Below the pieces are notes generated by a model. That model did not search any database. It was not told where the DNA came from and saw only the letters and a list, made by a program, of their open reading frames with translations. A stretch of DNA of 64,000 nt from a virus. The translations under genes and the position numbers were made by a program. The stretch lies in IMG/VR virus record IMGVR_UViG_3300048919_000265. One strand, given 5' to 3'. Below, in pieces: positions 5,208 to 55,899 of the stretch (positions are counted from its first letter, which is position 1; each line of letters begins with the position of its first letter).

Positions 5208-6247
5208 GTTGATTCCTCCTGTCCAGTCATCATTCTATTTAAAATATCAGATGCATCTGACATTATTTCTTCGGTATCATCGGTGTCTTTCATACTATCT
5301 GTAATCAGAGAGGTAAGACTCTCGACAACCTCAGAATCGTTACGTTTACCACTAAACAACATGCTTTTAGCACCACCAACTACCTCCAATAAACGATCCT
5401 TAATACTATTATCTCCCAATTCCCCATGTTCAGTGTTATAAAAGCCCACTAGCATGCTCATCGTCAGATAGGGCTCCAGTAACGTAGATTTCAGCAGAAC
5501 AGTAACGATCTTATATGTGATCAAAAACACTAACAAAGTCTTAGCACCAGAAGACCACAACATTACAATTGCACTAATAACAATCACACTATGTAACACC
5601 CACGAAAACAACTTCAACCAAAGCGTGCTAAAGAATGCTGACTTTAATACAGTTTTCCAGCTCTTAAAATAGAGTTGAACTCCTTCTACAATGCCTTCCC
5701 ACGCACTTAAGTCAGGATTACGATACATATGACTTACAACTATCTCATCCACATGGAATAAAACTGTCTTGACTACAGTTTTAAAAAGAGTAACCAGCAT
5801 ACCCTTTTTAAAAATCTCTGGAACAAAGGTTGCTTTGTCTACAACCCATTCAGACGCTTTTGTAAAGGCAGCTCTCATAACCGCATCCGCCAGGGACATA
5901 GCTGACACCGAACCGAATCGTTTCAGCATTTCTTTGAAACCAAAACTAAGACTAGCTGCTTTAACATCACCGCTATTCAAAAGCTCTGTTGCACTTGCCA
6001 CCTGTGCATACTTTATTAGGTGCCCTAAAAACTTTCTGGCCAACTCAATATAAATAATAAAAACAACCAAGCCAATATAACCAAACATAATATCAGCTAT
6101 CAGTAAACCTTCCAACCCCGTCAATTTCCTGAAGAATGATACTCCCCATCTAATCGCATAAAACCCAGGAATTATTGCAGCCAAGTTAACCACTAACCGC
6201 AAGATCAAAAATTGATACGTCAAACACATCAACCTAAAGGCTCCCAT
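5204..6247 (-). CDS. Multi-pass membrane protein of unknown function, 347 aa
   Basis: Several TM segments; internal HVDE...YRNP...AWEG...GVQLY stretch; acidic C-terminal tail. Confidence 0.8.
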   Translation of the reverse strand: MGAFRLMCLTYQFLILRLVVNLAAIIPGFYAIRWGVSFFRKLTGLEGLLIADIMFGYIGLVVFIIYIELARKFLGHLIKYAQVASATELLNSGDVKAASLSFGFKEMLKRFGSVSAMSLADAVMRAAFTKASEWVVDKATFVPEIFKKGMLVTLFKTVVKTVLFHVDEIVVSHMYRNPDLSAWEGIVEGVQLYFKSWKTVLKSAFFSTLWLKLFSWVLHSVIVISAIVMLWSSGAKTLLVFLITYKIVTVLLKSTLLEPYLTMSMLVGFYNTEHGELGDNSIKDRLLEVVGGAKSMLFSGKRNDSEVVESLTSLITDSMKDTDDTEEIMSDASDILNRMMTGQEEST

Positions 6248-6912
6248 TACCTCTCCTCATTCCGATCAATAAAATGATACAAAAATTTCAACCCTTTTAA
6301 TGTCTCCAATAATTCAGATAAGCTAGCGTAATCAGACTCTAAATAATACTTATATTCTGGTCCAAAATGAGCCAGAAATTCGGTCGCAGAGAAACTAAAT
6401 GATTTAGTGAAAAACTCCATATAAACTCTGCCCTTAAAGTTAGTACCTTTACTCACATCAGTACACTTATCATAAACTTTTACGCGATTGATATGCAAAT
6501 AACTAGACTTCACAAGATCCAAGGGAACAGCCAACCTCAGATCCATTTCTATCTTCTGTGCAGATGACAACTTCCCAATATATTCATCCAACTGTGCCCG
6601 ACTAATACTAATCAACTGCTCAAAATGAATTTTAGATGAAGGATCCCAGGTCTCGCCAGATGCTAAATCATTTACATTTGTAACCTCCTGCAGAAAAGGA
6701 TATGCTTTCTTATCAGCAGAAGAAACTGGAGCAACAATCAAAATCGGAGAATTCATTCCAAAATTAGATTGACAAACTACACACGGACGACGTCCACTCT
6801 GAACGCTACCATGCTTATCTCTCGGCAACTTTACGTACCATAAATTTCCTTTACCAGTGTAATTAACATCATAACGCATTGTACTTGGTACTACACCTCT
6901 AATTGTGCTCAT
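6247..6912 (-). CDS. mazF: PemK/MazF-family endoribonuclease toxin with ~90-aa C-terminal extension
   Basis: LWYVKLP...GSVQSGRRPCVVCQSN...SPILIVAPVSS...KIHFEQLISIS...YIGKLS follows the B. subtilis MazF (EndoA) pattern GSEQGGVRPVLVIQN...SPTAIVAAIT. Confidence 0.85.
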   Translation of the reverse strand: MSTIRGVVPSTMRYDVNYTGKGNLWYVKLPRDKHGSVQSGRRPCVVCQSNFGMNSPILIVAPVSSADKKAYPFLQEVTNVNDLASGETWDPSSKIHFEQLISISRAQLDEYIGKLSSAQKIEMDLRLAVPLDLVKSSYLHINRVKVYDKCTDVSKGTNFKGRVYMEFFTKSFSFSATEFLAHFGPEYKYYLESDYASLSELLETLKGLKFLYHFIDRNEER

Positions 6913-10353: not shown

Positions 10354-11025
10354 CTAAAAACTAACACCTGCCATGATTTCACTTAAATTCATACTTCCGA
10401 AGGTTTCACCTATCTGATCATTACTAGCGCTCTCACCTTTAATCATACGATAAACACTTTTTGGATCATATCCGTCTTGCATAAAGAGTATAGACAACTT
10501 AATATCCTCAACACTAGTTATTTGTTCTTTTTTCATAACACTAGCTAATTCTAGAAAATTAGTTATCTGTAAATCCTTAATAACTTTAAAAGAACGTCTA
10601 GAAAACCCTGTGTCTAAGACACTAATTTGTTCGGTTTTAAATATACTAGAAACACCGCACAACATTTGCATTTTTCTATCAGCTAACACCAAGTTATTTA
10701 GTACCTGATAAAAAGTCAAACCACTCTTTTCAACAACCTGTGAATACAGCACCATAATATTTATAAGTCCACCACCACGATCACATGAAAAACAATGGCA
10801 CCGATTATTTAACTCATCTACACCCATGGAAGGAGTCTTATCTGCGTGAAAAGGGCATTTTATAACCACCTCATTAAGACGTTTATTCTCCGCTTCATTC
10901 CAAGCAAGCTTGGATTTAAGGAATTTCTCAAAAGTGTACTCTTCAGATTCCCTAATGTAAGATAGTACTTTACTTACTGCCTCCTGATTAACTACTCTCA
11001 ACTTCATCGCGATACAACCTCCCAA
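10354..11025 (-). CDS. Stand-alone CHC2 (DnaG-type) zinc-finger protein with no TOPRIM domain; probable start 11007
   Basis: CPFHADKTPSMGV...CHCFSCDRGG motif; 223 aa with no TOPRIM EG/DxD motifs. Confidence 0.85.
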   Translation of the reverse strand: MGGCIAMKLRVVNQEAVSKVLSYIRESEEYTFEKFLKSKLAWNEAENKRLNEVVIKCPFHADKTPSMGVDELNNRCHCFSCDRGGGLINIMVLYSQVVEKSGLTFYQVLNNLVLADRKMQMLCGVSSIFKTEQISVLDTGFSRRSFKVIKDLQITNFLELASVMKKEQITSVEDIKLSILFMQDGYDPKSVYRMIKGESASNDQIGETFGSMNLSEIMAGVSF

Positions 11026-11067: not shown

Positions 11068-12933
11068 TCATTCCCCAATTCCATACTCTTCGTGTTGTAC
11101 TCTTGTCGGCTCTACAATCTTTACAGCCTTACCAGAATACTTAGCAATAACAATAGACACATCACGCAGTGTAATGTTTCCATCCTTATATTGATTAACC
11201 GCTTGCAGCACCTCTTGTTTGGCCTCAGATTCCAATCGTTGAGCAAAACTTGTCCACTTAATAATACGTCTTTCTTCGGCTGTAAGTTCTTTCTTCTCTG
11301 CCGTCTTACCAAAAAGATTTACAAGTTCGACCTCTTTAATACCGTTAGGGGTTTCGACACTAACCTTCAACAAACCATCCGTGTCAATTGCCATAACAAT
11401 ATAAACTGGTACCTTGCCAGCCTCTTTCTTAGGAAGATTATCAACGACAATACTGCCTAAATACAGACACTCTTCCTTCAATACAGATAATCCCTCATAA
11501 ACCTCAATTTGCACTACTTCCTGATTATCGTACTTCGTGGTATACATCCGACGATCAGTATGCGGCACACGTTGGTTTTTCTTAATCACCGTACTAACAT
11601 GTCCATCACTAATAACACCAATATTCTGCGGAATAACGTCAAACACTTCGATATTAGTATCACCGAACTTTGTCTCTTTTGCCTTTATAGCTGCTCCCAT
11701 AGCGACGCTCTCATCTGGATTCAAAGCACTATTAATCTGAACTCCAGGGAAATCCTTGCGCAAAAACTCCTTAATAACTTCCGACTTGGTGCTACCACCA
11801 ACAAGCACAATAGCGTCAATCCGACTCTTATCTGTACGATTTAACACTTCATCTACTAGTTTCTTAGTTTTTAAATACACCACTTCAGTAGCTGCTCTAA
11901 TATCAGAAGGTTGAATATCAACTTGTTCTTCCAGCACACCTGCACCACTCTTGAGTGGGAACTTCATCTTGACCCCATACGAGTGACCCACACCTTGCAA
12001 TTTTATCTTTTCCATACGCAGAATCAATTTCTCTTTTTCCTGTCTTGGGATTAGGTCAGTATTAACTCCACGAGACCGCAACTTTCCTTCAAGAATCTTG
12101 TAAAGTTCCAAATCGATATCATCACCACCCAACTTGGAATCCCCACTCGTGTCTAACACGCTATACTTCTTAGAGAAAACAGAATCGTCTCCATCTTCAA
12201 CCTCTATACCATACAAATCCGCAAGTTCGTCACCTAATCCACTAGAAATACTAATACGCAACAGAGAAGCATCAAATGTACCACCACCCAAATCATACGC
12301 AAGAATGGTTTGCTCTGCCTCCTCTTGTTCAGAACCCACATCATAAACAAGGGTAGCGGCAGTAGGTTCTCTTAAAATCCCAAGTAAACTAAGTCCAGCA
12401 AGCTCTGCTGCTAGCTTAGTATCTGTGATTTGCTTATTATCGAAATAAGCCGGCACAGTAATAACTACATCTTTAACATCTTTATACTGAACACTAGCTT
12501 GTTTAACAAGCTCCTTCAAAATCTCTGCTGAAACTTCGGCTGGAGTCATTACAAGTTCTTTAGTTCCATACTTCAAAGTAACCGATTCTCCAGAACCCAT
12601 TTTACGTTTCACTGAATAAACAGCACTTTGTTTATATCTATTCACATAAGCTTCTTTACCTACAACAAATTCTCCCTTTTTACCTTTCCACATAATAACC
12701 GAGGGTAAAGTTTTAGCTCCGTTATTAAGCTCAATAACCCTAGGTACATTTCCTGCTTGAACTACACTGATGCAACTATTTGTTGTCCCTAAATCGATAC
12801 CAAACGCCGGTGTTTTGATTCCTTCTTTTCCTAAGAAGTCACTAGTAACTTCTCCAAACGCATTCATTGGTTTTACCATTACACTATCTCCCTTTTCCAT
12901 TAATATGTAGTCACACAAAAATAAATACAACAC
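11068..12933 (-). CDS. Hsp70/DnaK-family chaperone, divergent; probable start MVKPM at 12879
   Basis: GIDLGTTNS, TVPAYF, EPTAA, YDLGGGTFD, LGGDDID, VLVGGST, NPDESVAMGAA, DVIP; substrate-binding beta domain and a short lid. Confidence 0.95.
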   Translation of the reverse strand: MLYLFLCDYILMEKGDSVMVKPMNAFGEVTSDFLGKEGIKTPAFGIDLGTTNSCISVVQAGNVPRVIELNNGAKTLPSVIMWKGKKGEFVVGKEAYVNRYKQSAVYSVKRKMGSGESVTLKYGTKELVMTPAEVSAEILKELVKQASVQYKDVKDVVITVPAYFDNKQITDTKLAAELAGLSLLGILREPTAATLVYDVGSEQEEAEQTILAYDLGGGTFDASLLRISISSGLGDELADLYGIEVEDGDDSVFSKKYSVLDTSGDSKLGGDDIDLELYKILEGKLRSRGVNTDLIPRQEKEKLILRMEKIKLQGVGHSYGVKMKFPLKSGAGVLEEQVDIQPSDIRAATEVVYLKTKKLVDEVLNRTDKSRIDAIVLVGGSTKSEVIKEFLRKDFPGVQINSALNPDESVAMGAAIKAKETKFGDTNIEVFDVIPQNIGVISDGHVSTVIKKNQRVPHTDRRMYTTKYDNQEVVQIEVYEGLSVLKEECLYLGSIVVDNLPKKEAGKVPVYIVMAIDTDGLLKVSVETPNGIKEVELVNLFGKTAEKKELTAEERRIIKWTSFAQRLESEAKQEVLQAVNQYKDGNITLRDVSIVIAKYSGKAVKIVEPTRVQHEEYGIGE

Positions 12934-13008: not shown

Positions 13009-13506
13009 TTAATCAAATAACTGTAATGAAGGATGTGCAATTGTGACTTCCAAGTCTGTAACCTCGAAATTCTTGTAAATCAATTCAAGAACACTTAATT
13101 CGTCCAAACCTCCAACACCACATCCTAATAGCGGTAAGGTGACGCTATTAAATCTGTGCTCCAAACATAAGTCAACCACTTTAACTAAACATCTCTCTAC
13201 ACACCCTAAAGAAGAAGATTTCCCTGGCTTTTCCATAGTAACTGCATGAAAGACAGTAGGTTTAAACTCTAACATACCTGGTGTGATGAAAACATCACCT
13301 ATACCAGGCTTCCCTAATTTGGCTTGCTTCATTGCAAGTTTTTCTATCCTACCGTGTGTCCTGCGATTAAGTGCCTGAGCCACACCACCAAACTTTAAAA
13401 ACCTAGAAAGAAATCCTCCCATCCAACCAAGAGAATTTGCCGCATTTACAACTACTTCCGTGTTTGCAGCACAAATATCCCTAATAACTTTGTACCTTCC
13501 TGCCAA
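13009..13506 (-). CDS. Macrodomain (ADP-ribose binding/hydrolase) protein, 165 aa
   Basis: VVNAAN...MGG...GGVAQAL, GDVFIT, VFHAVT, VTLPLLGCGVGGL. Confidence 0.9.
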   Translation of the reverse strand: MAGRYKVIRDICAANTEVVVNAANSLGWMGGFLSRFLKFGGVAQALNRRTHGRIEKLAMKQAKLGKPGIGDVFITPGMLEFKPTVFHAVTMEKPGKSSSLGCVERCLVKVVDLCLEHRFNSVTLPLLGCGVGGLDELSVLELIYKNFEVTDLEVTIAHPSLQLFD

Positions 13507-13943: not shown

Positions 13944-14600
13944 CTATCTAGGTGAGTACTTATAAAAGGTGATTGTAACCCCGTTCAACTCTCGTGCCAT
14001 TATTTTTAGGACTTCTCTCCAATCTGCCCCTCCACGATCACTGCCAAACTTATACGGTAGAGCAACACTACAATTAAACTTAAGCGCCCTATCCCTTATC
14101 TTAGAGAAGCACTCGGAAAGTGCTGAATAATTTGTATATTGCTTTCCGTCATATCCATAAGTATCTTGCCCAAACGCATTAATAACTCCTCTAAAGGGAC
14201 TGGCAGATAACATCACCAACTGCACATTACCTAAAGCTGGCTTCACCTTGCTCAGATATCCTTTATACGCCGCATAAACAATAGGCCACTTATTTTTAAT
14301 TTGACGAGCTACTCCACTTCCCATTACACCTTTACAATTCACTTGATGTACAATAAAATTCTCGGTTGCTTCTAGCAAATCACCAGAAACAAATTTTATA
14401 ATGACTCCCTCTTTGGCACGTTGAATTGTTTCCTTATTAATTTTCTTTAGCCATTCCAAGGAGTCTCCATCGCATGCGTCTAAATATTCGGCAAAAGACG
14501 ATAACATCACCATTATCTCTGCTTCTTCAAACGAAACATTACAAACTCTAATATAATCTGTGATGACTCTCTCCAACAACCCATCTCCTGTACTCACCAC
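13944..14600 (-). CDS. Macrodomain protein (TARG1/DarG-like) with ~65-aa N-terminal extension
   Basis: FVSGDLLEA..IVHQVNCKGVMGSGVARQIK, INAFGQ, TNYSAL, VALPYKFGSDRGGADW. Confidence 0.9.
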   Translation of the reverse strand: MVSTGDGLLERVITDYIRVCNVSFEEAEIMVMLSSFAEYLDACDGDSLEWLKKINKETIQRAKEGVIIKFVSGDLLEATENFIVHQVNCKGVMGSGVARQIKNKWPIVYAAYKGYLSKVKPALGNVQLVMLSASPFRGVINAFGQDTYGYDGKQYTNYSALSECFSKIRDRALKFNCSVALPYKFGSDRGGADWREVLKIMARELNGVTITFYKYSPR

Positions 14601-15734: not shown

Positions 15735-16316
15735 CTAAAATATTTCCATTTGATTCAATCTTATTTGTTCTACCCCAGGAACATTAAAATCGCTAATATC
15801 CCAACTTGGGTTTATCCGAGCATAAAACTTGCACCGCTTTAGGTCAATAAAAGGAATAAAACTGATCATTTCTTCATCTTCACTCTCAGAATATCCCAAC
15901 TGAAGTCCCTCTGAAAATTCCTCTAAATACAAAGAGGCATCGTCATCATCAATTGCATTTCTCACATGATTAGAGTAAAACAATAGCTTCTCATAGCTCA
16001 CAGAAACAACCATATCCTGTGGCATTTGAAGCTCAAACAAAACAGTGCTCCCGTTGTTAGGATTGATAGGTAAAAATTCATTCAGATTAGTGCCAACGGT
16101 CTTTAGGTCAGAGGGCTCGCCATTATACCTCGACAAGCCCGCTATAGGTGTGTTATTATACCCGATGTTATCAGCTATGCACTCTCTAATAATATCTTTT
16201 ATTTTATGATGTAAACTCGGCATAGTGTCCAAATCCGATAATCTACATTCAGATATAAGTGCTCTTGCTTTCTCTTCTTCGACTGCTACAATAAGTTTGA
16301 CAACACCAGCCATCAC
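15735..16316 (-). CDS. Hypothetical protein, 193 aa
   Basis: ORF track; RBS AGGAG. Confidence 0.8.
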   Translation of the reverse strand: MMAGVVKLIVAVEEEKARALISECRLSDLDTMPSLHHKIKDIIRECIADNIGYNNTPIAGLSRYNGEPSDLKTVGTNLNEFLPINPNNGSTVLFELQMPQDMVVSVSYEKLLFYSNHVRNAIDDDDASLYLEEFSEGLQLGYSESEDEEMISFIPFIDLKRCKFYARINPSWDISDFNVPGVEQIRLNQMEIF

Positions 16317-25430: not shown

Positions 25431-25949
25431 TTATCCCACCTTCACAGCACTAATACTATCAATAACTTCCTGTACATTTAACCTAACACCTTTGAAAGAG
25501 TCAGACACTACCGAGTCTATGAAAGAAGAAAAATTATAAACTAATTCCACATCCGTATTTATATTACAGCTATCTGGCACAACCACAACATTAGTCATCT
25601 CCAAAGCCTTCTTATTTGCACGACGCAAATTGTTGTTTAAACTCCTAATATGTTCAAAGTTTTGCGTAACTGGATTAAATATCTTAGTAGTAAAAGTCCC
25701 AGATCTGCCATACCAATCCACGTCAGATAGTCTTCCCTGTAATTCACTATTGAAGCTCTTAGCTTCAATGCAATAAATATTCCAAGGGGTTATAAACAAC
25801 CTATCTATTTCGGTTGTAGTCTTTAAAAATGATGAATGAATTCTTAAATTAGGCAACATAAAACAACCTTTGTTTTTTAAGCTTGAGAGAACCGATGAAA
25901 TTTGAACTTCAAAAGCGGTTCCCTTCTTTATTGGTGATGCCATATCCAT
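25431..25949 (-). CDS. NERD-domain (PD-(D/E)xK-type) nuclease-related protein
   Basis: GTAFE, NLRI...EIDRLFIT...IYCIEAK, NPVTQN..H. Confidence 0.85.
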   Translation of the reverse strand: MDMASPIKKGTAFEVQISSVLSSLKNKGCFMLPNLRIHSSFLKTTTEIDRLFITPWNIYCIEAKSFNSELQGRLSDVDWYGRSGTFTTKIFNPVTQNFEHIRSLNNNLRRANKKALEMTNVVVVPDSCNINTDVELVYNFSSFIDSVVSDSFKGVRLNVQEVIDSISAVKVG

Positions 25950-48507: not shown

Positions 48508-48530
48508 AAATAACTCTCCTTAAATGAAAT

Positions 48531-48559
48531 ATAGCGGTGGGGATAATCCCCACCGCTAT
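48531..48559 (-). terminator. Probable intrinsic terminator after the high-expression gene
   Basis: 12-bp perfect stem ATAGCGGTGGGG/CCCCACCGCTAT, followed on the minus strand by ATTTCATTT; 26 nt after the stop at 48586. Confidence 0.75.
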
Positions 48560-48585: not shown

Positions 48586-50031
48586 TTATTGAGCAACGCG
48601 AGCGGCAGCGCGAATATCAGTAATCGAGTTTTCGATTTGTTTGAAATCAACATTAGTATCAGCGAAAGTAATATCGCTTTCATCCAGTTGATGTTGTGCC
48701 AAACCAAGACGCAGGCGAATCAATTGCTCATTGCTTACGAAGTTAGCTGGTTTCTTAGTTGTAGTACGACGAGTAAGTTCACGCAGACGTTCAACAGTCA
48801 AAGCACCATTAGAAGCATCAACAATTGTTTTGAACGCTGGATTATTCAAAGATGCCAATTTGCTCAGCTCAGGATCGTTCAACACGCGTTCGTCAGTAGT
48901 GAGAACTGTTTTGAAACGTGGATTGCCCATAACTCCTGCAGCATTTGGTTTAGCTTCCTTAACAGGAATAGCGATATCGGAAAGAGGCTCTCCTTCTTTT
49001 GCATCGAAGAAAGGACGAACAGTAATTTGCTCGCGCTCATTGATGTTACGTGCAAAGAAAGTAGAAGTAATCTTACCTTCTGCATCAACACTTACCTTGT
49101 TTGCATCTTCAGGAGCCAACAGACTGTATTTACTCTTGTCGTCTCGGTTCTTGCGACCATGAACCAAATTGTGGAAAGCAGAAACATTCAGCTTCTCAAT
49201 TTGCGTTTCGTCCAGCGGTTGGTTGTAGTTAATTGTTTCATAAGTGCGCAGTGGGAAATAGTTAGAATCAATAAACAAACTACGACGTTTGCTAGTTTTC
49301 AACAATGGAACAACCACTTGTTGACCTGTAGGTTGACCATCTTTAGTTTTGTAACGAACAGTAGCTTTTTGTGTTACCACACCAGCAGCTGCTCCACCAT
49401 GAGTAAGTTCGCTTTCTGCAATCTCACTACCAAAATACAAGTCGAGGATTGTAGGATACAGTTCTTTAGACAATACTTGCGTAACCAGAGTACGATTAGA
49501 CTCATCAGCTTGAAGGCGACCTGGTTTCAAGAAGTCTGTCATTTCAACGATACCCCCAGCTGGGATAGTCAAAACCAAACCTTGGATTTTACCAGGCTTA
49601 GCTTGACGAACGTTAATACGAGTCTCAGTTTGTAGATACTTCTTAGCAACTTTTTCGCCTTGTTCATGCGCCTGTTGCACTTCTGCTGGAGCTGTAGCAC
49701 TAACTACAACTTTACCATTTTCCAAACGAGGTTCTGCTGTCGTTATGAACTCAATACGTTTGTCGGTAGCAGTAATGTAACCAATCAAACGACCTTCAGT
49801 GCGATTAAACTTTTGCAGAGAATAAGCGTCTGCAGCTTCCATTTCAGAAATTTGAGAAGAAATTTCAGCACGCAATCCAGATGGTTTACTTTCAGTTGTG
49901 CTAGGCTCTTCGTTAAACGCATTCATTGCAGTGGGTGCTGCATTACCTTCAGTCAAACCTTGCTGCAAATCCTCCAAACCTGTTGAACTCAATTCTGCCA
50001 AACCTTCCAAACCCTTCAAACCGTCTCCCAT
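48586..50031 (-). CDS. Unknown 481-aa protein with strongly high-expression codon usage (starts MGDGLKGLEG)
   Basis: Internal ATG 50029-50031 with AAGGAG 9 nt upstream and an A-rich leader; CGT/TTC/GGT/GCT/ACT-rich; followed by a strong hairpin. Confidence 0.8.
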   Translation of the reverse strand: MGDGLKGLEGLAELSSTGLEDLQQGLTEGNAAPTAMNAFNEEPSTTESKPSGLRAEISSQISEMEAADAYSLQKFNRTEGRLIGYITATDKRIEFITTAEPRLENGKVVVSATAPAEVQQAHEQGEKVAKKYLQTETRINVRQAKPGKIQGLVLTIPAGGIVEMTDFLKPGRLQADESNRTLVTQVLSKELYPTILDLYFGSEIAESELTHGGAAAGVVTQKATVRYKTKDGQPTGQQVVVPLLKTSKRRSLFIDSNYFPLRTYETINYNQPLDETQIEKLNVSAFHNLVHGRKNRDDKSKYSLLAPEDANKVSVDAEGKITSTFFARNINEREQITVRPFFDAKEGEPLSDIAIPVKEAKPNAAGVMGNPRFKTVLTTDERVLNDPELSKLASLNNPAFKTIVDASNGALTVERLRELTRRTTTKKPANFVSNEQLIRLRLGLAQHQLDESDITFADTNVDFKQIENSITDIRAAARVAQ

Positions 50032-50412
50032 TACTTTCAGCTCCTTAGCTATTTCTTTTGTTTTGTTAATTTTTCCTGCAGGATATAACTTTTCAATATA
50101 TTCAACACCCGAGAATTGATCTTTACCATTCCATTCCCGAATATTGAACTTTCTTCTGCGAATCTGTTTGGCAACAAGAACTCCATCACTAGAAACTATG
50201 TGTGCTTTATCAATATCAGTCACACTATCTAAGGGCCGGTCACTTGCTACCCATTTCGCACCATCAATAACAATGGGGACTGCAACCTGTAACTTCTCCT
50301 CAGAACTCAACTCCCTGAATTTTGACAACTCAAGAGTGTACTTCAAGTCCATCTCATGAAGAGTCCGCAGTTCACTGTGCTGCATCATAAACTCCATCGT
50401 AATTTCAGTCAC
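50032..50412 (-). CDS. 127-codon upstream segment (MTEITMEF...), in frame with the 481-aa protein; either an N-terminal extension or a separate gene
   Basis: GTG start with G-rich RBS; ordinary codon usage (AGA, CGG); one extra A in the A5 run at ~50070-50074 would create a TAA stop. Confidence 0.55.
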
Positions 50413-50487
50413 TAGTTAATACCACCACCCCCACGTATATTCATCATGAGATAATCAGCCACTGTCTTAAAATACGGTATTGCGTTC

Positions 50488-50515
50488 CTGGCTGTGATTC
50501 GACAATCACAGCCAG
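50488..50515 (-). terminator. 12-bp perfect hairpin directly after the alpha-subunit gene, no U tract
   Basis: CTGGCTGTGATT-CGAC-AATCACAGCCAG. Confidence 0.5.
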
Positions 50516-50522
50516 AAAATTG

Positions 50523-51218
50523 CTATTCCTCAAGAGAGAGCTCAAAACCTTGATTAACTTCTTCCTCCTCTCTATAGAACTCCGGATCTTTCTGAGAAAT
50601 CCTAGATTGAACCATAGAAACATTTTTAAGCAAAAGACTCAAACTATCCTCAAGCAAACTCATTTCATCTGCTGTATCAGAGTCGACACAAAGGATCAGC
50701 CATTCATCCAACAGAGAAGCTTCTTTAATATCGAAAGTGAAGTTACGTACATTAGTATGGCGCGAATTAAACACCATGTAATCCTCCCTACGTTCTCCAC
50801 TTTCTATTAAGAAATCAGCGTTGCTAGCATGATCCATTTCGCCAGAAGCTTTTCTAAACACAATAGTAAGTGTAACAGCACGATCCTCTAATGATGTCAT
50901 AATAACACTATCTGGACCAGACACTACAAAATTATCAGACATCATTTCGCTACTTCTAAGACTCTTAGTGAAAGTAAACTTCTCCTTAATGAAATTTCCT
51001 TCAAGTCCTTCAGTGGGCACGTACCTTAAAGATGTAACACCTGCCATAATGCTAGGCATATCTTCGGGAATCTCAGCAGTTGTATGCACCGTATTAAACT
51101 TCCTATCTAGTGAAATTGCAATAGGTACCCAAGCCGATAATCTTGACATAGCTATTTGTCGTAATGCATTGCCTACAGCTACACCCACTCCTTTAGGCAA
51201 TCGTACTTCGAGTTTCAT
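50523..51218 (-). CDS. rpoA: RNA polymerase alpha subunit, N-terminal assembly domain only (no CTD), 231 aa
   Basis: LPKGVGVAVGNALRQIAMS aligns with E. coli LERGFGHTLGNALRRILLS; IPEDMPSIM aligns with VQEDILEIL; later FNSRHTNVRNFTFDI...EWLILCVDSD aligns with DSIYTPVSRVSYQV...DKLTLDVWTD. Confidence 0.85.
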   Translation of the reverse strand: MKLEVRLPKGVGVAVGNALRQIAMSRLSAWVPIAISLDRKFNTVHTTAEIPEDMPSIMAGVTSLRYVPTEGLEGNFIKEKFTFTKSLRSSEMMSDNFVVSGPDSVIMTSLEDRAVTLTIVFRKASGEMDHASNADFLIESGERREDYMVFNSRHTNVRNFTFDIKEASLLDEWLILCVDSDTADEMSLLEDSLSLLLKNVSMVQSRISQKDPEFYREEEEVNQGFELSLEE

Positions 51219-51775
51219 TATACCACCTCTACAATGTAAGTTTCTTCGCTGTTGTTACCAAAATACAATAAGATAGAAGCAAGAGCAAGCAAATCATTAG
51301 CTTCTAAACGTTCCAATTCTTCATAATTAAACTGGGCGAAAACCCCAATACTAAACCCATCTGTGCTATCTCCATTCTCAAGCACTCCCTTAAGTTCCGC
51401 TACAATATCCTGCAAAACTAATTGCTTCTTTGGTATCTTAGACTCTCTTCCCAAAGAAGTCTCAATTTTAATACAAGGACTGATATCTAACTCTGTACGC
51501 AAAACGTTACACAACATATTAGCCATGTCTTGATAAAAATACTTTAACACCAACGAACACTCGTACAGAAACTGATCTTTACCTCTCAAGTAATCCAATG
51601 CTTTTTTATACACAAATATATCTCGCCCGTACAGATCAGAAACTATTTGCAGATGCAATTGGCTTTTTACATAATTTTCAAAGGTAAACGTCAGATCTCT
51701 GTTGAAAAAGTGCATGTGTATAGGCTTGACGCCACTAACAATAAACATCATAAACTGACTGTACGGAACTATCAT
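51218..51775 (-). CDS. Hypothetical protein, 185 aa
   Basis: ORF track; TAATG coupling on both sides. Confidence 0.75.
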   Translation of the reverse strand: MIVPYSQFMMFIVSGVKPIHMHFFNRDLTFTFENYVKSQLHLQIVSDLYGRDIFVYKKALDYLRGKDQFLYECSLVLKYFYQDMANMLCNVLRTELDISPCIKIETSLGRESKIPKKQLVLQDIVAELKGVLENGDSTDGFSIGVFAQFNYEELERLEANDLLALASILLYFGNNSEETYIVEVV

Positions 51776-52821
51776 CAGAACTCCCTCAAATTCAGTAATT
51801 CATTTTTTACAACCTTTTCTTGATCAAAAGATAGATTGCGATCTGCAGCAAACTCACCACTCTTTAGTTCCCAAGCCCGACGCCGTAAATCTTCAATCTC
51901 TTCTTCCAAGGCTGGTAATTTCGACTCTCTGATTGTCTTTAGACTGGCATAATCGTTAGTCAATGACAATATCTTAGCAAGTCCAAATTTATCAATCTGA
52001 GAGATTGAAGCTCCCGTAAAATCAATACCCTCAGCCATCCTAGGATAAACAAGATTAAGATTGTTCAAAAGAAAGACAGCATCCTCCTTCACTAGCCTAC
52101 CATTATCTAATAATTGTTTTATAAACAACTTAAGGGCTGTGGGATTACGGGTGACATTAACGTTAAAGGTGGACATTCCTTCATTCAGGAAGTTGCAGAA
52201 CTCCTCATACAGAGTTGCACCTTTTAACTTCGTGTGTTCAGAAGAAAATGCATGTACTCTATCCGAACCATCACCACAGAAAACTTTATGTGCAGATATC
52301 GTATTAAACATAATCTTTTTACCACGAACAACACTATAATTAAAATTATGCCAAGTAACTCTATTAACATTACTATTGAGAGGCTCCATTGTGACTTTAC
52401 TATCAACATTATGTGAGATATCATAGTCTGCGGTATAAATGGAAATTTTGCTATATTGATCTCTGTTCTTCTCCACAGCACTAAAGATAAGATCATCCGC
52501 TTCAAAACCCTTTACCTTGTACGCAGGTATTCCACACTGCAACAACCGTTCATACAAAAATTCAGCTTGACTATTTACTACATGAGCACTAGGTCGATTT
52601 CCTTTATAATCAGCACTGATAGTTTTGCGATCAGTACTACTATCAAACATAACAGCAACATCTGCCATATTAGATAAATTCAGAACTAGGGTCTTGAGTA
52701 AGTACTTTACCCCACCTAATGGATAACCATGAGCATAAACTTTGCTATACTCATCTATATTTGTAACAGAATGCAAATAACCATGTGCATCATGTAATGT
52801 TAAGTGTCCCTTCACTACCAT
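51775..52821 (-). CDS. Stand-alone 5'-3' exonuclease / flap endonuclease (Pol I N-terminal type)
   Basis: HDAHG, VMFD, RKTISADYKGNR, GFEADDLI, YTADYD, GDGSD motifs. Confidence 0.9.
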   Translation of the reverse strand: MVVKGHLTLHDAHGYLHSVTNIDEYSKVYAHGYPLGGVKYLLKTLVLNLSNMADVAVMFDSSTDRKTISADYKGNRPSAHVVNSQAEFLYERLLQCGIPAYKVKGFEADDLIFSAVEKNRDQYSKISIYTADYDISHNVDSKVTMEPLNSNVNRVTWHNFNYSVVRGKKIMFNTISAHKVFCGDGSDRVHAFSSEHTKLKGATLYEEFCNFLNEGMSTFNVNVTRNPTALKLFIKQLLDNGRLVKEDAVFLLNNLNLVYPRMAEGIDFTGASISQIDKFGLAKILSLTNDYASLKTIRESKLPALEEEIEDLRRRAWELKSGEFAADRNLSFDQEKVVKNELLNLREF

Positions 52822-54495: not shown

Positions 54496-55899
54496 TCAGT
54501 TGTTAGTGCCAGCCTCTTTAATGATGCTAGCTTGCAAAGACGCATTAGCTTCTGCCACATCTTCCAATTCAACTAATTCAGAAAGCTCAGATGTAGCAGC
54601 TACCTCATCCAATTCTTCCTCGAACTCCGAAAATTCAATAATTCCTTCAATAACCAACCCTGCAGGGATTTGATTACCTGTAATATGAACGAACTCTGTA
54701 TTTGGTGTCAGTTCTTTGAATCGTTCAGCAAGATAATCGGCAATACTAATCCCATTAGGATACGCATCCGGCTCAGATTCTTCAATCGGAACTTCTGTTT
54801 CAATTGGAGAAAGATAAGTTCGACCAAACAAACGACCACTAATACTTACAGTATTCAAATCTCTAATACCGACTTCCGTTTGAGTATCAAACACTTTATC
54901 AATTAGATCATCAACAATACGGTAAGCAAATGTTCTCTTAACCTGCTCGATCAAAGGCATTACACTAATTAGGCTTCCGCCGTCCTTAATTCTACCAGTT
55001 CTCAAAGCATTTTCAAGTACACCAAGTCCTAAGTCCCCACCGCCGTATTTGTCAACATACAAACGGTTAAGTTCTTCTCGAAGTTGCTTGCCTCCGTACT
55101 TCAAGGTTTTTTGAGCCGTAGAAAGACTAATACCGTCATTCAGTATTTCAGCACCTATGCTTCTGCCCCCACCTTCAATATGTAAGGTACTTTCTGGAGT
55201 CTCTTCCTCCCCCATCGCATAGTACGCTTTAATTGCAGCTTCAGGTTCAGTTCTGGTAATAATAGCCTTAAAAGAAAAATCAATGTGAACACCAGAAGGA
55301 ATGTGTAACCATTTATAAGACTGCAAATTATGCCGCAAACCCTTCAAATTAGTTTCATTCAAATCATCCGGTGGTAACGCGACCGACAAATAAACTTCAA
55401 CTTCAGTTGGGATCTCGCCTTCATACTTTTGACAAGTACCAATCCCCATCATATCCAACAAGTTATAATAAAATGTAGCATCTTGGCTTTTTTGTGTTGT
55501 AGACTTAAGTCTATTCTCTTTGAGCTCCACATCAGTAGCTTTAATACCTCTCACAAGACGTACATTCTCAAACAACACTTCCCCGTCGATGCTTGTATTC
55601 ACAATACGGGAATCCAAATTATCATAAATAAAATCACCTTTAGGTGCAATAGCTCTATTATCTGGCACCGTTTTAGAAGCAGAAGGAATTGCATAAACAA
55701 CCGAAAGCTCTTCTAGAAAATTCCCAATTTGATCGAAATCCAGAATAGTCACACGAAATTGTGTAGATCCTCCATCTAAACCCGCGATAACACGAACCTT
55801 CCGTCCTTCTTTATTCTTAAAATTAATTACTCGATGCAGCTTCTCTTCCCCGGGTTCTACTGGAATCTTCCGAGAAGTAGCTTTCTTCAACAAATCCAT
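54496..55899 (-). CDS. parM: ParM/StbA-family actin-like ATPase with acidic C-terminal tail
   Basis: GLDGGST (phosphate 1), LSVALPP, EPEAA, HIEGGGRS (phosphate 2), YGG, ISG. Confidence 0.85.
   Translation of the reverse strand: MDLLKKATSRKIPVEPGEEKLHRVINFKNKEGRKVRVIAGLDGGSTQFRVTILDFDQIGNFLEELSVVYAIPSASKTVPDNRAIAPKGDFIYDNLDSRIVNTSIDGEVLFENVRLVRGIKATDVELKENRLKSTTQKSQDATFYYNLLDMMGIGTCQKYEGEIPTEVEVYLSVALPPDDLNETNLKGLRHNLQSYKWLHIPSGVHIDFSFKAIITRTEPEAAIKAYYAMGEEETPESTLHIEGGGRSIGAEILNDGISLSTAQKTLKYGGKQLREELNRLYVDKYGGGDLGLGVLENALRTGRIKDGGSLISVMPLIEQVKRTFAYRIVDDLIDKVFDTQTEVGIRDLNTVSISGRLFGRTYLSPIETEVPIEESEPDAYPNGISIADYLAERFKELTPNTEFVHITGNQIPAGLVIEGIIEFSEFEEELDEVAATSELSELVELEDVAEANASLQASIIKEAGTNN

Follow-up and report, generated by a model that had tools for sequence, protein, structure and literature searches.

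The gene analysed here lies on the minus strand of a 64,000-nt stretch of the virus record IMGVR_UViG_3300048919_000265 (the whole stretch is hereafter called the window). It is a frame of 608 codons, and its distal part, the 481 codons that begin with the ATG at position 50031, shows the most extreme codon usage in the window. Our results indicate that this gene (the target) and its family are very probably nested genes, in which two in-frame starts yield a minor form of 608 residues and a major form of 481 residues. We are similarly confident that the target encodes the most abundant product of its neighbourhood. An earlier note on this DNA took the 481-residue protein to be the entire gene. 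The frame upstream of ATG 50031, however, continues without a stop as far as GTG 50412 (608 amino acids), and the 481-residue protein is better regarded as the short product of a conserved, longer nested gene.

Codon usage and the internal start

Codon preference in the window was expressed as the share of a rare set (AGA, AGG, ATA, TTA, CTA, GGG, CGG and CGA) among the Arg, Ile, Leu and Gly codons. By this measure, the distal part of the target, from ATG 50031 to the stop at 48586, is the extreme of the window with 3.1% rare codons, compared to 20.9% in the runner-up among the 50 other genes, an Hsp70 homologue, and to a median of about 40%. CGT and CGC account for 27 of its 28 Arg codons, TTA for none of the 45 Leu codons and ATA for a single one of the 26 Ile codons, and the effective number of codons is 38. 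Codons 1-127 are ordinary (33% rare, with CGY at one of seven Arg codons). The codon-by-codon map places the switch at the internal ATG, with 13 rare codons in the first 127 and about 5 in the remaining 481, exactly where the earlier note had located a change in codon usage.

The codon switch, together with the order of the surrounding genes, recurs in eight elements of about 140-230 kb. For the comparison of these elements, we used gene-independent measures, namely the share of C-ending codons for Phe, Tyr, Asn, His and Asp and the share of ATA among the Ile codons, and ranked the genes within about 10 kb of the target. The distal part tops all 94 of the 94 neighbouring genes for C-ending codons, and ATA makes up 9% of its Ile codons as opposed to 36% in the neighbours (p 1e-18) and 30% in the N-terminal part of the same genes (Fisher p 1e-4). 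The N-terminal part itself is intermediate in C-ending codons and ordinary in its use of ATA. Selection on codon choice scales with the number of ribosomes that cross a codon. Because codon optimisation sets in precisely at the internal start, far more ribosomes are expected to cross the distal part than the preceding codons, and the short form would be the bulk product. The suggestion of high expression made in the earlier note is thus well supported, and so is its remark that an antisense frame of 352 amino acids mirrors the bias of the gene. The two frames share their codon register, and the sense frame contains no TTA codon, one CTA and one TCA; given that these codons are nearly absent, the antisense frame is best regarded as a by-product.

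The internal start shows the hallmarks of a conserved initiation site. A methionine occupies the column of M128 in 133 of the 139 aligned family members, amid a linker that is otherwise hardly conserved; the next residue is alanine in 47% of the members, and upstream of the methionine, position −5 is K, E, R or G in 90% and position −4 is E, G or R in 89%. A GGAGG-type string is found 7-11 nt 5′ of the homologous ATG in most of the ten loci compared, and the closest orthologue (locus L001) has just a weak GAAAGG before its internal ATG. The string is encoded in different ways, as AAG GAG GAA (KEE, frame 0), CAA GGA GGA (QGG, frame +1) or AGG AGG (RR, frame +2). Because it is maintained in three reading frames while the peptide changes, it is the DNA, not the peptide, that appears to be conserved. 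In five of the ten loci, no other site of the gene pairs with the anti-Shine-Dalgarno sequence as strongly as the internal Shine-Dalgarno (SD) sequence, which in the remaining loci belongs to the top few per cent. The 60 nt around the internal start are among the least structured segments of the gene (on average, the 7th percentile of folding across eight loci), with an A content of 40-60% in these eight loci. In the target, the leader consists of 53% A and is weakly folded, and AAGGAG is spaced 9 nt from the ATG; these features bear out the strong ribosome-binding site and A-rich leader described in the earlier note.

The evidence that the upstream part is translated as well comes from comparison with relatives. 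The closest relative (P0002, 614 amino acids, on a 161-kb Logan contig) is 55% identical and aligns from residue 1, with its start ATG opposite the target GTG 50412, and GGGGGTGGTG precedes both the target GTG and the aligned ATG of the L001 orthologue. Residues 1-115 are the part best conserved with respect to P0002 (70% identity), and the linker is 31% identical to that of the closest orthologue. In the comparison of the target with its closest relative, the ratio of nonsynonymous to synonymous substitution rates is 0.15 in this N-terminal domain (N-domain) and 0.13 in the core; the similarity of the two values implies that the N-domain is translated and subject to selection. Two family members that resembled natural genes for the short form alone were rejected as such, given that both are cut by the ends of their contigs and have open upstream frames. 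Searches for a standalone N-domain and for longer fused forms of the family, both of limited sensitivity, found none. An A5 run is present at 50070-50075 (GGA AAA ATT AAC), where insertion of one A would introduce a stop and divide the gene in two; the run is kept in L001. Because the in-frame fusion is seen family-wide, a homopolymer artefact at this run is unlikely.

The simplest competing interpretation is that only one protein of 608 residues is made, that the internal methionine and the purine stretch are incidental, and that the switch in codon usage reflects an old gene fusion or a long 5′ codon ramp. This interpretation agrees with the absence of a stop between the two parts in any member examined and with the single protein predicted by gene callers. 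It is, however, hard to reconcile with the near-universal methionine in an otherwise unconserved linker, with the unstructured initiation region and with a GGAGG string that persists in three frames while the peptide varies. Furthermore, the codon switch is retained in members down to about 20-30% identity, which argues against an old fusion because amelioration should have erased the switch, and a ramp of 127 codons would far exceed those described, which to our knowledge are all far shorter. We therefore consider the single-protein interpretation highly improbable.

Layout, protein family, predicted structure and neighbourhood

The coordinates of the features of the target and of its flanks are collected in Table 1.

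Table 1. Features of the target gene and flanking DNA, in window coordinates; the two isoforms are predicted products
Feature	Position	Strand	Remarks
Open reading frame of the predicted long isoform, 608 codons, stop included	48586..50412	−	Start GTG 50412; from the open-reading-frame list
SD-like sequence GGGGGTGGTGG	50422..50432	−	9 nt 5′ of the long-form start; read from the sequence
N-domain, residues 1-115	50068..50412	−	Small, beta-rich, ordinary codons; predicted long isoform only
Internal SD sequence AAGGAG	50041..50046	−	Within codons K124-E125; 9 nt before ATG 50031
Internal start ATG, Met128	50029..50031	−	Would begin the 481-residue short isoform
Acidic linker, residues 116-180, predicted disordered	49873..50067	−	Would form the N-terminal arm of the short isoform
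Short linear motif M163-N-A-F166	49915..49926	−	In the disordered arm; family motif P-M-[ND]-A-F-[DNSG]
Basic alpha/beta core, residues 181-545	48778..49872	−	Without detectable fold relative
C-terminal tail, residues 546-608	48589..48777	−	Lys-rich flexible hinge, then helices
Intrinsic terminator	48521..48559	−	13-bp GC-rich stem, 3-nt loop, T-rich tail
Stable hairpin between the RNA polymerase alpha-like gene and the target	50488..50518	−	No T tail; from the sequence
Antisense shadow frame, 352 amino acids	48577..49635	+	Not a gene; codon register shared with the sense frame

As the earlier note had proposed, the terminator downstream of the target, with its hairpin proper at 48559-48531, has no stronger counterpart on the coding strand of the window (−24.8 kcal/mol, compared to −18.8 kcal/mol for the runner-up among all sites that combine a hairpin with a T-rich tail). 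A comparable hairpin is found 3′ of the gene in about seven of nine related loci. On the 5′ side, the 110-nt intergenic region folds with −33.4 kcal/mol (RNAfold), and the hairpin it contains may insulate the transcription unit of the target. The combination of the terminator and the preceding hairpin is consistent with an insulated unit of high output within a long co-directional array.

A hairpin and, after it, an AT-rich motif of the form TATA[CA]A...AAATGTAA, located 10-25 nt 5′ of the SD sequence, was observed in the intergenic regions before the gene, namely 5′ of the target orthologues in three loci (L004:9921-10000, L012:820-903 and L013:7909-8000) and in the window at 50413-50522; this combination may represent an element-specific promoter. 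The distance between the target and the clamp-loader gene that follows it is 28-168 nt in other loci, and in L013 an 895-nt non-coding gap with several strong hairpins is found at this place (L013:9834-10728).

An exhaustive profile search detected 197 representative clusters (at the 50% identity level) with E ≤1e-3, of which 185 reach E ≤1e-10; all are unnamed, and nearly all of the 150 best representatives are 540-650 amino acids long. Conservation within the family is uneven. In the linker, the column of the phenylalanine in the M163-N-A-F166 motif is kept in 105 of 139 members, and an [ML]xxF pattern occurs in 69 of 139 linkers compared to 19 ± 4 in shuffled ones. In the core, a conserved block FG..I.E...T.G..A includes the invariant glutamate E333, and several proline and asparagine residues are invariant as well.

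An AlphaFold2 model was built with a 139-sequence alignment and reaches a mean predicted local distance difference test score (pLDDT) of 87 for the full-length protein. The N-domain (residues 1-115) is predicted to be beta-rich with pLDDT >90, residues 116-175 of the linker fall below 50, as does the hinge at residues 551-558, and helices are predicted at 561-572 and 590-607. Residues 180-608 modelled alone yield a pLDDT of 92 and a predicted template modelling score of 0.89. The charge is unevenly distributed, with family medians of isoelectric point (pI) 4.4 and net charge −5 for the linker, pI 8.9 and net charge +6 for the core, and pI 9.3 for the Lys-rich tail. At its N-terminus, the short form is acidic (pI 4.2) and, by prediction, disordered, in line with the acidic, low-complexity start to which the earlier note had drawn attention. 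The target sequence contains no signal peptide or membrane segment.

Searches for known relatives were uniformly negative. Neither the target nor any of up to 70 relatives matched Pfam, PHROGs or NCBIfam, and at E ≤0.001 none of the Pfam profiles, the PF00436 profile of single-stranded DNA-binding proteins (SSB) included, matched the target or 69 relatives. Single-sequence and profile searches of the PDB returned rows at chance level alone, and Foldseek (against PDB and BFVD) and VIA-align, run with confident models, produced no fold match. In particular, there was no structure of the HK97, double-jelly-roll, chimallin or encapsulin type among the structural matches, all of these types being represented in PDB and BFVD, and no DnaN, PCNA or gp45 clamp fold; nor was a structural match to an OB-fold or to the adenovirus DNA-binding protein (DBP) found. 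Two BFVD rows annotated as SSB (phage proteins) were weak (E 0.02-0.06, template modelling score ~0.1) and are not relied on, and look-ups in the ESM Atlas, by features and by its own poor model (pLDDT 0.31), gave nothing usable. Accordingly, the absence of any recognisable motif claimed in the earlier note extends to the family and to the fold. The target protein appears to be new, and the family and both of its domains are without detectable relatives. The lack of a fold match does not exclude a known fold, and because models of more than 400 residues can mask domain matches, the novelty of the fold is provisional.

The neighbourhood of the target is constant. In nine genomic contexts, the genes follow the same order: a flap endonuclease (FEN), a protein of 187 amino acids, an alpha-like protein of ~200-230 amino acids, the target, the clamp loader, a protein of ~150 amino acids and a giant protein of 1,400-1,750 amino acids; longer loci add RecJ, a 251-amino-acid gene and a PilB-type ATPase upstream. 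The identity of the members in these contexts falls to ~20%, and their contigs, some of them from human gut assemblies, measure up to 228 kb. Around the target, a near gene-for-gene order is kept even though the proteins are 20-55% identical (L001, L002, L004/L005, L006, L011, L012 and L013), and human gut assemblies that contain the P0050-type element are numerous (79 index blocks). The neighbours named in the earlier note, rpoA and dnaX, fared differently. The downstream gene encodes a clamp-loader AAA+ protein (PF13177) that directly follows the target in all nine contexts. The 231-amino-acid upstream neighbour (50523-51218) has no Pfam match; in the PDB, phmmer consistently aligns its residues 7-166, though weakly, with the N-terminal domains of RNA polymerase alpha subunits (best E 1.3e-4), and it has no C-terminal domain. 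PDB sequence searches with the 395- and 154-amino-acid neighbours returned nothing.

The window is a single co-directional array. Searches of Pfam, PHROGs and PDB identified UvrD, RecJ, a PilB/VirB11-type ATPase, a ParM-like protein, FEN, the protein resembling the N-terminal domain of RNA polymerase alpha, the clamp loader, hydrolases with NlpC/P60 and 3D domains, SNF2, a DnaB-like helicase, a DnaG zinc ribbon, Hsp70, a GreA-like protein, macro domains, NERD and PemK. Among the ~50 open reading frames of the window that were scanned, none matched a virion family (portal, terminase, tail or capsid), and none matched the Pfam families SSB or DnaN. The carrier elements bring their own genes for replication and transcription. 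After the target, the ParM-like gene (54496-55899, a PHROG partition protein) and the Hsp70 gene (11068-12933) are the most codon-optimised genes of the window, and the ParM-like orthologues in L001 and L002 are also outliers (CGY share of Arg codons 0.87 and 0.65), which suggests that these elements may make abundant actin-like filaments. The same strand carries a PemK/MazF-type toxin domain, two macro-domain proteins and a NERD nuclease domain (6247-6912, 13009-13506, 13944-14600 and 25431-25949), probably defence or addiction modules of the element.

A pattern scan of GTDB revealed one relative, in the metagenome-assembled genome of a Clostridia bacterium; pattern scans of 2.9 million IMG/VR contigs and of JGI metagenome contigs detected no relative of the target, and tblastn searches of the INPHARED phages and PLSDB plasmids with the target and the neighbouring 1,592-amino-acid protein had no match. 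In the literature, we found nothing specific that describes these elements. The family is confined to elements of roughly 140-230 kb in gut metagenomes and to one Clostridia genome assembly.

Possible roles of the two products

We propose that initiation at GTG 50412 would produce the minor form, composed of the N-domain, the acidic arm, the basic core and the Lys-rich tail, and that ribosome entry at the internal SD sequence and ATG 50031 would produce the major form, devoid of the N-domain. The target would then be a stoichiometric nucleic-acid-coating or hub protein of the replication-transcription machinery of the element, and a functional counterpart of abundant viral SSBs, for instance T4 gp32, T7 gp2.5 or adenovirus DBP: the basic core and the Lys-rich tail would hold DNA, the acidic arm with its PMxAF motif would touch partners or fold back onto the core, and in the rare long form the N-domain would attach part of the protein pool to a further component. 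This role is favoured over that of a capsid or shell because of the charge distribution (core pI 8.9, arm 4.4, Lys-rich tail), the conserved phenylalanine motif in an otherwise unconserved disordered arm, the position beside FEN and the clamp loader in all nine contexts, the lack of a signal peptide or membrane segment, and the presumed cytoplasmic location. It is further favoured by the extremely heavy translation and by the composition of the window, which encodes a primase zinc ribbon, a DnaB-like helicase, FEN, RecJ, UvrD and a clamp loader and, among the ~50 frames scanned, no Pfam SSB. Several considerations weigh on the other side. Both isoforms and the abundance are deduced from sequence; no nucleic-acid-binding fold or motif was detected in the target; a canonical SSB may be encoded in the ~170 kb of the element beyond the window; and known SSBs have their acidic arm at the C-terminus, not at the N-terminus. 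Moreover, codon bias reports on translation load, not on function, and would fit a structural protein equally well. We thus put forward the DNA-coating or replisome-hub role as possible but short of probable, and the explanation as a whole, combining the nested gene, the abundance and this role, is likewise tentative.

Among the competing roles, that of a self-assembling structural protein (a subunit of a capsid, shell, compartment or filament), which the earlier note had inferred, deserves the most attention. Under this interpretation, the short form would build a lattice, the arm and the C-terminal helices would reach neighbouring subunits, and the long form would occupy special positions or serve as an anchor. 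In every element that was compared, codon optimisation is highest in the target, and the gene nearby that ranks second in bias is the actin-like ParM relative. The predicted core combines long loops, modelled with confidence, with flexible arms at the termini, and the complete lack of VIA-align matches may reflect an extended shape. In addition, a minor long and a major short isoform are typical of assembly systems, such as UL26/UL26.5 of herpes simplex virus (HSV) and C/Nu3 of lambda, which the isoform pair proposed here resembles. However, the structural databases returned no counterpart of the HK97, double-jelly-roll, chimallin or encapsulin type, the core is basic, the gene is placed among replication and transcription genes instead of a morphogenesis block, no portal, terminase, tail or capsid family was found among the scanned frames of the window, and no relative was seen in the IMG/VR contigs. 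Thus, of the earlier proposal of an abundant structural protein, the high expression is well supported and the capsid, shell or filament role remains without support; we consider such a role doubtful. Alternatively, the target could be an enzyme or a chaperone-like factor that is abundant and has a new fold, with modification or protection of the element's DNA or RNA as a conceivable activity; the invariant E333 in its conserved block and the several invariant proline and asparagine residues speak for this option. Yet the searches revealed neither a catalytic family nor a nucleotide-binding or cofactor motif, the extreme codon bias would be unusual for a protein that acts catalytically, and the conserved positions are mostly proline, glycine and hydrophobic residues, as expected from structural conservation, so that this option is quite unlikely.

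Two further possibilities involve the C-terminal peptides of other proteins of the element. A hydrophobic [ML]-x-x-F tail, similar to clamp-binding motifs of bacteria such as QL[SD]LF, is found at the C-terminus of several proteins of replication type: FEN (51775-52821) ends in ...NLREF and a 193-amino-acid protein (15735-16316) in ...QMEIF, and the DnaG zinc-ribbon protein (10354-11025) ends in ...MAGVSF. A similar motif, M-N-A-F, is found within the disordered arm of the target. The target could therefore be a hub or processivity-type factor that partners with the adjacent clamp loader, its core being the receptor of such peptides and PMxAF a self-ligand. The FEN and 193-amino-acid tails are compatible with this idea, as is the constant order of target, AAA+ clamp loader and ~150-amino-acid protein, which recalls genes 45-44-62 of T4. 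Nevertheless, no DnaN, PCNA or gp45 fold was matched, although such folds are usually easily detected, and a protein that itself bears the motif is more simply a client than a receptor; we regard this role as improbable. Given the M-N-A-F in its arm, the target may be a client of the same hub as the tailed proteins; that it is the hub itself is less probable. A related and still unlikely reading is that the element assembles a hub or compartment of its own from the short isoform, whose basic core of novel fold would bind [ML]-x-x-F peptides. The PMxAF arm of each subunit would serve to connect it with others or to hold it closed, the [ML]-x-x-F C-termini would recruit the RNA polymerase, flap endonuclease and other proteins of the element, and the result would be a private replication-transcription factory of a plasmid-like element, anchored by the long isoform.

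Whatever its role, the target appears to be the most heavily translated gene, among those within about 10 kb, of a widespread class of ~140-230 kb gut Clostridia elements that was not detected in the phage, plasmid and viral collections searched. The nested-start design predicts two proteins from one frame at a fixed ratio, and the gene would represent a clean natural case of codon optimisation that follows ribosome flux inside a single open reading frame. With 197 clusters and a constant gene order in the contexts examined, the target is a specific marker for such elements. Its function would probably reveal the lifestyle of these giant elements, be it that of a plasmid with a protected replication machine or that of an unrecognised virus.

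Comparison with known systems

The gene order of the clamp and clamp-loader region of T4 is 45-44-62, and the target is likewise followed immediately by an AAA+ clamp-loader gene and then by a small gene of ~150 amino acids, in an element several of whose proteins end in clamp-binding-like peptides. In contrast to gp45, the target has no match to a processivity fold and is far larger (608 or 481 residues). The chimallin (ChmA) of chimalliviruses shares with the target the (here, presumed) abundance, an unusual fold, flexible terminal arms and a large element with a gene for a cytoskeletal filament. However, no sequence or structure match between the two was found, although the PDB includes chimallin structures; the filament gene in the element of the target is actin-like, not tubulin-like, no virion genes were found in the window, and the core of the target is basic.

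The nested-gene design itself is a known kind of organisation. HSV-1 UL26/UL26.5, lambda C/Nu3, T7 gene 4A/4B and ColIb-P9 sog all have, like the target, an in-frame internal ribosome-binding site and ATG, and pair a scarce long product with an abundant short one. As proposed for the target, the short product lacks the N-terminal domain; in the target family the arrangement is conserved throughout, and the excess of the short form is presumed. The target differs in that its N-domain comprises just 115 residues and carries no protease, primase or other catalytic signature, in that its short form is predicted to be a folded alpha/beta protein and not a helical scaffold, and in the absence of capsid genes nearby.

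The group that comprises T4 gp32, T7 gp2.5, E. coli SSB and adenovirus DBP differs from the target in several respects: the target gave no Pfam SSB, OB-fold or DBP match, its acidic arm is N-terminal, and its isoforms would be nested. The likeness is nonetheless broad. These proteins are heavily translated and encoded among replication genes, as the target appears to be, and combine a basic body with an acidic disordered arm that bears a conserved hydrophobic or aromatic contact motif; in T4 gp32, T7 gp2.5 and adenovirus DBP, the arm of the DNA-binding body contacts partners or folds back. The closest parallel to the predicted layout of the target is offered by adenovirus DBP, which consists of a disordered N-terminal part, a core of ~350 residues with a fold of its own and a C-terminal arm.

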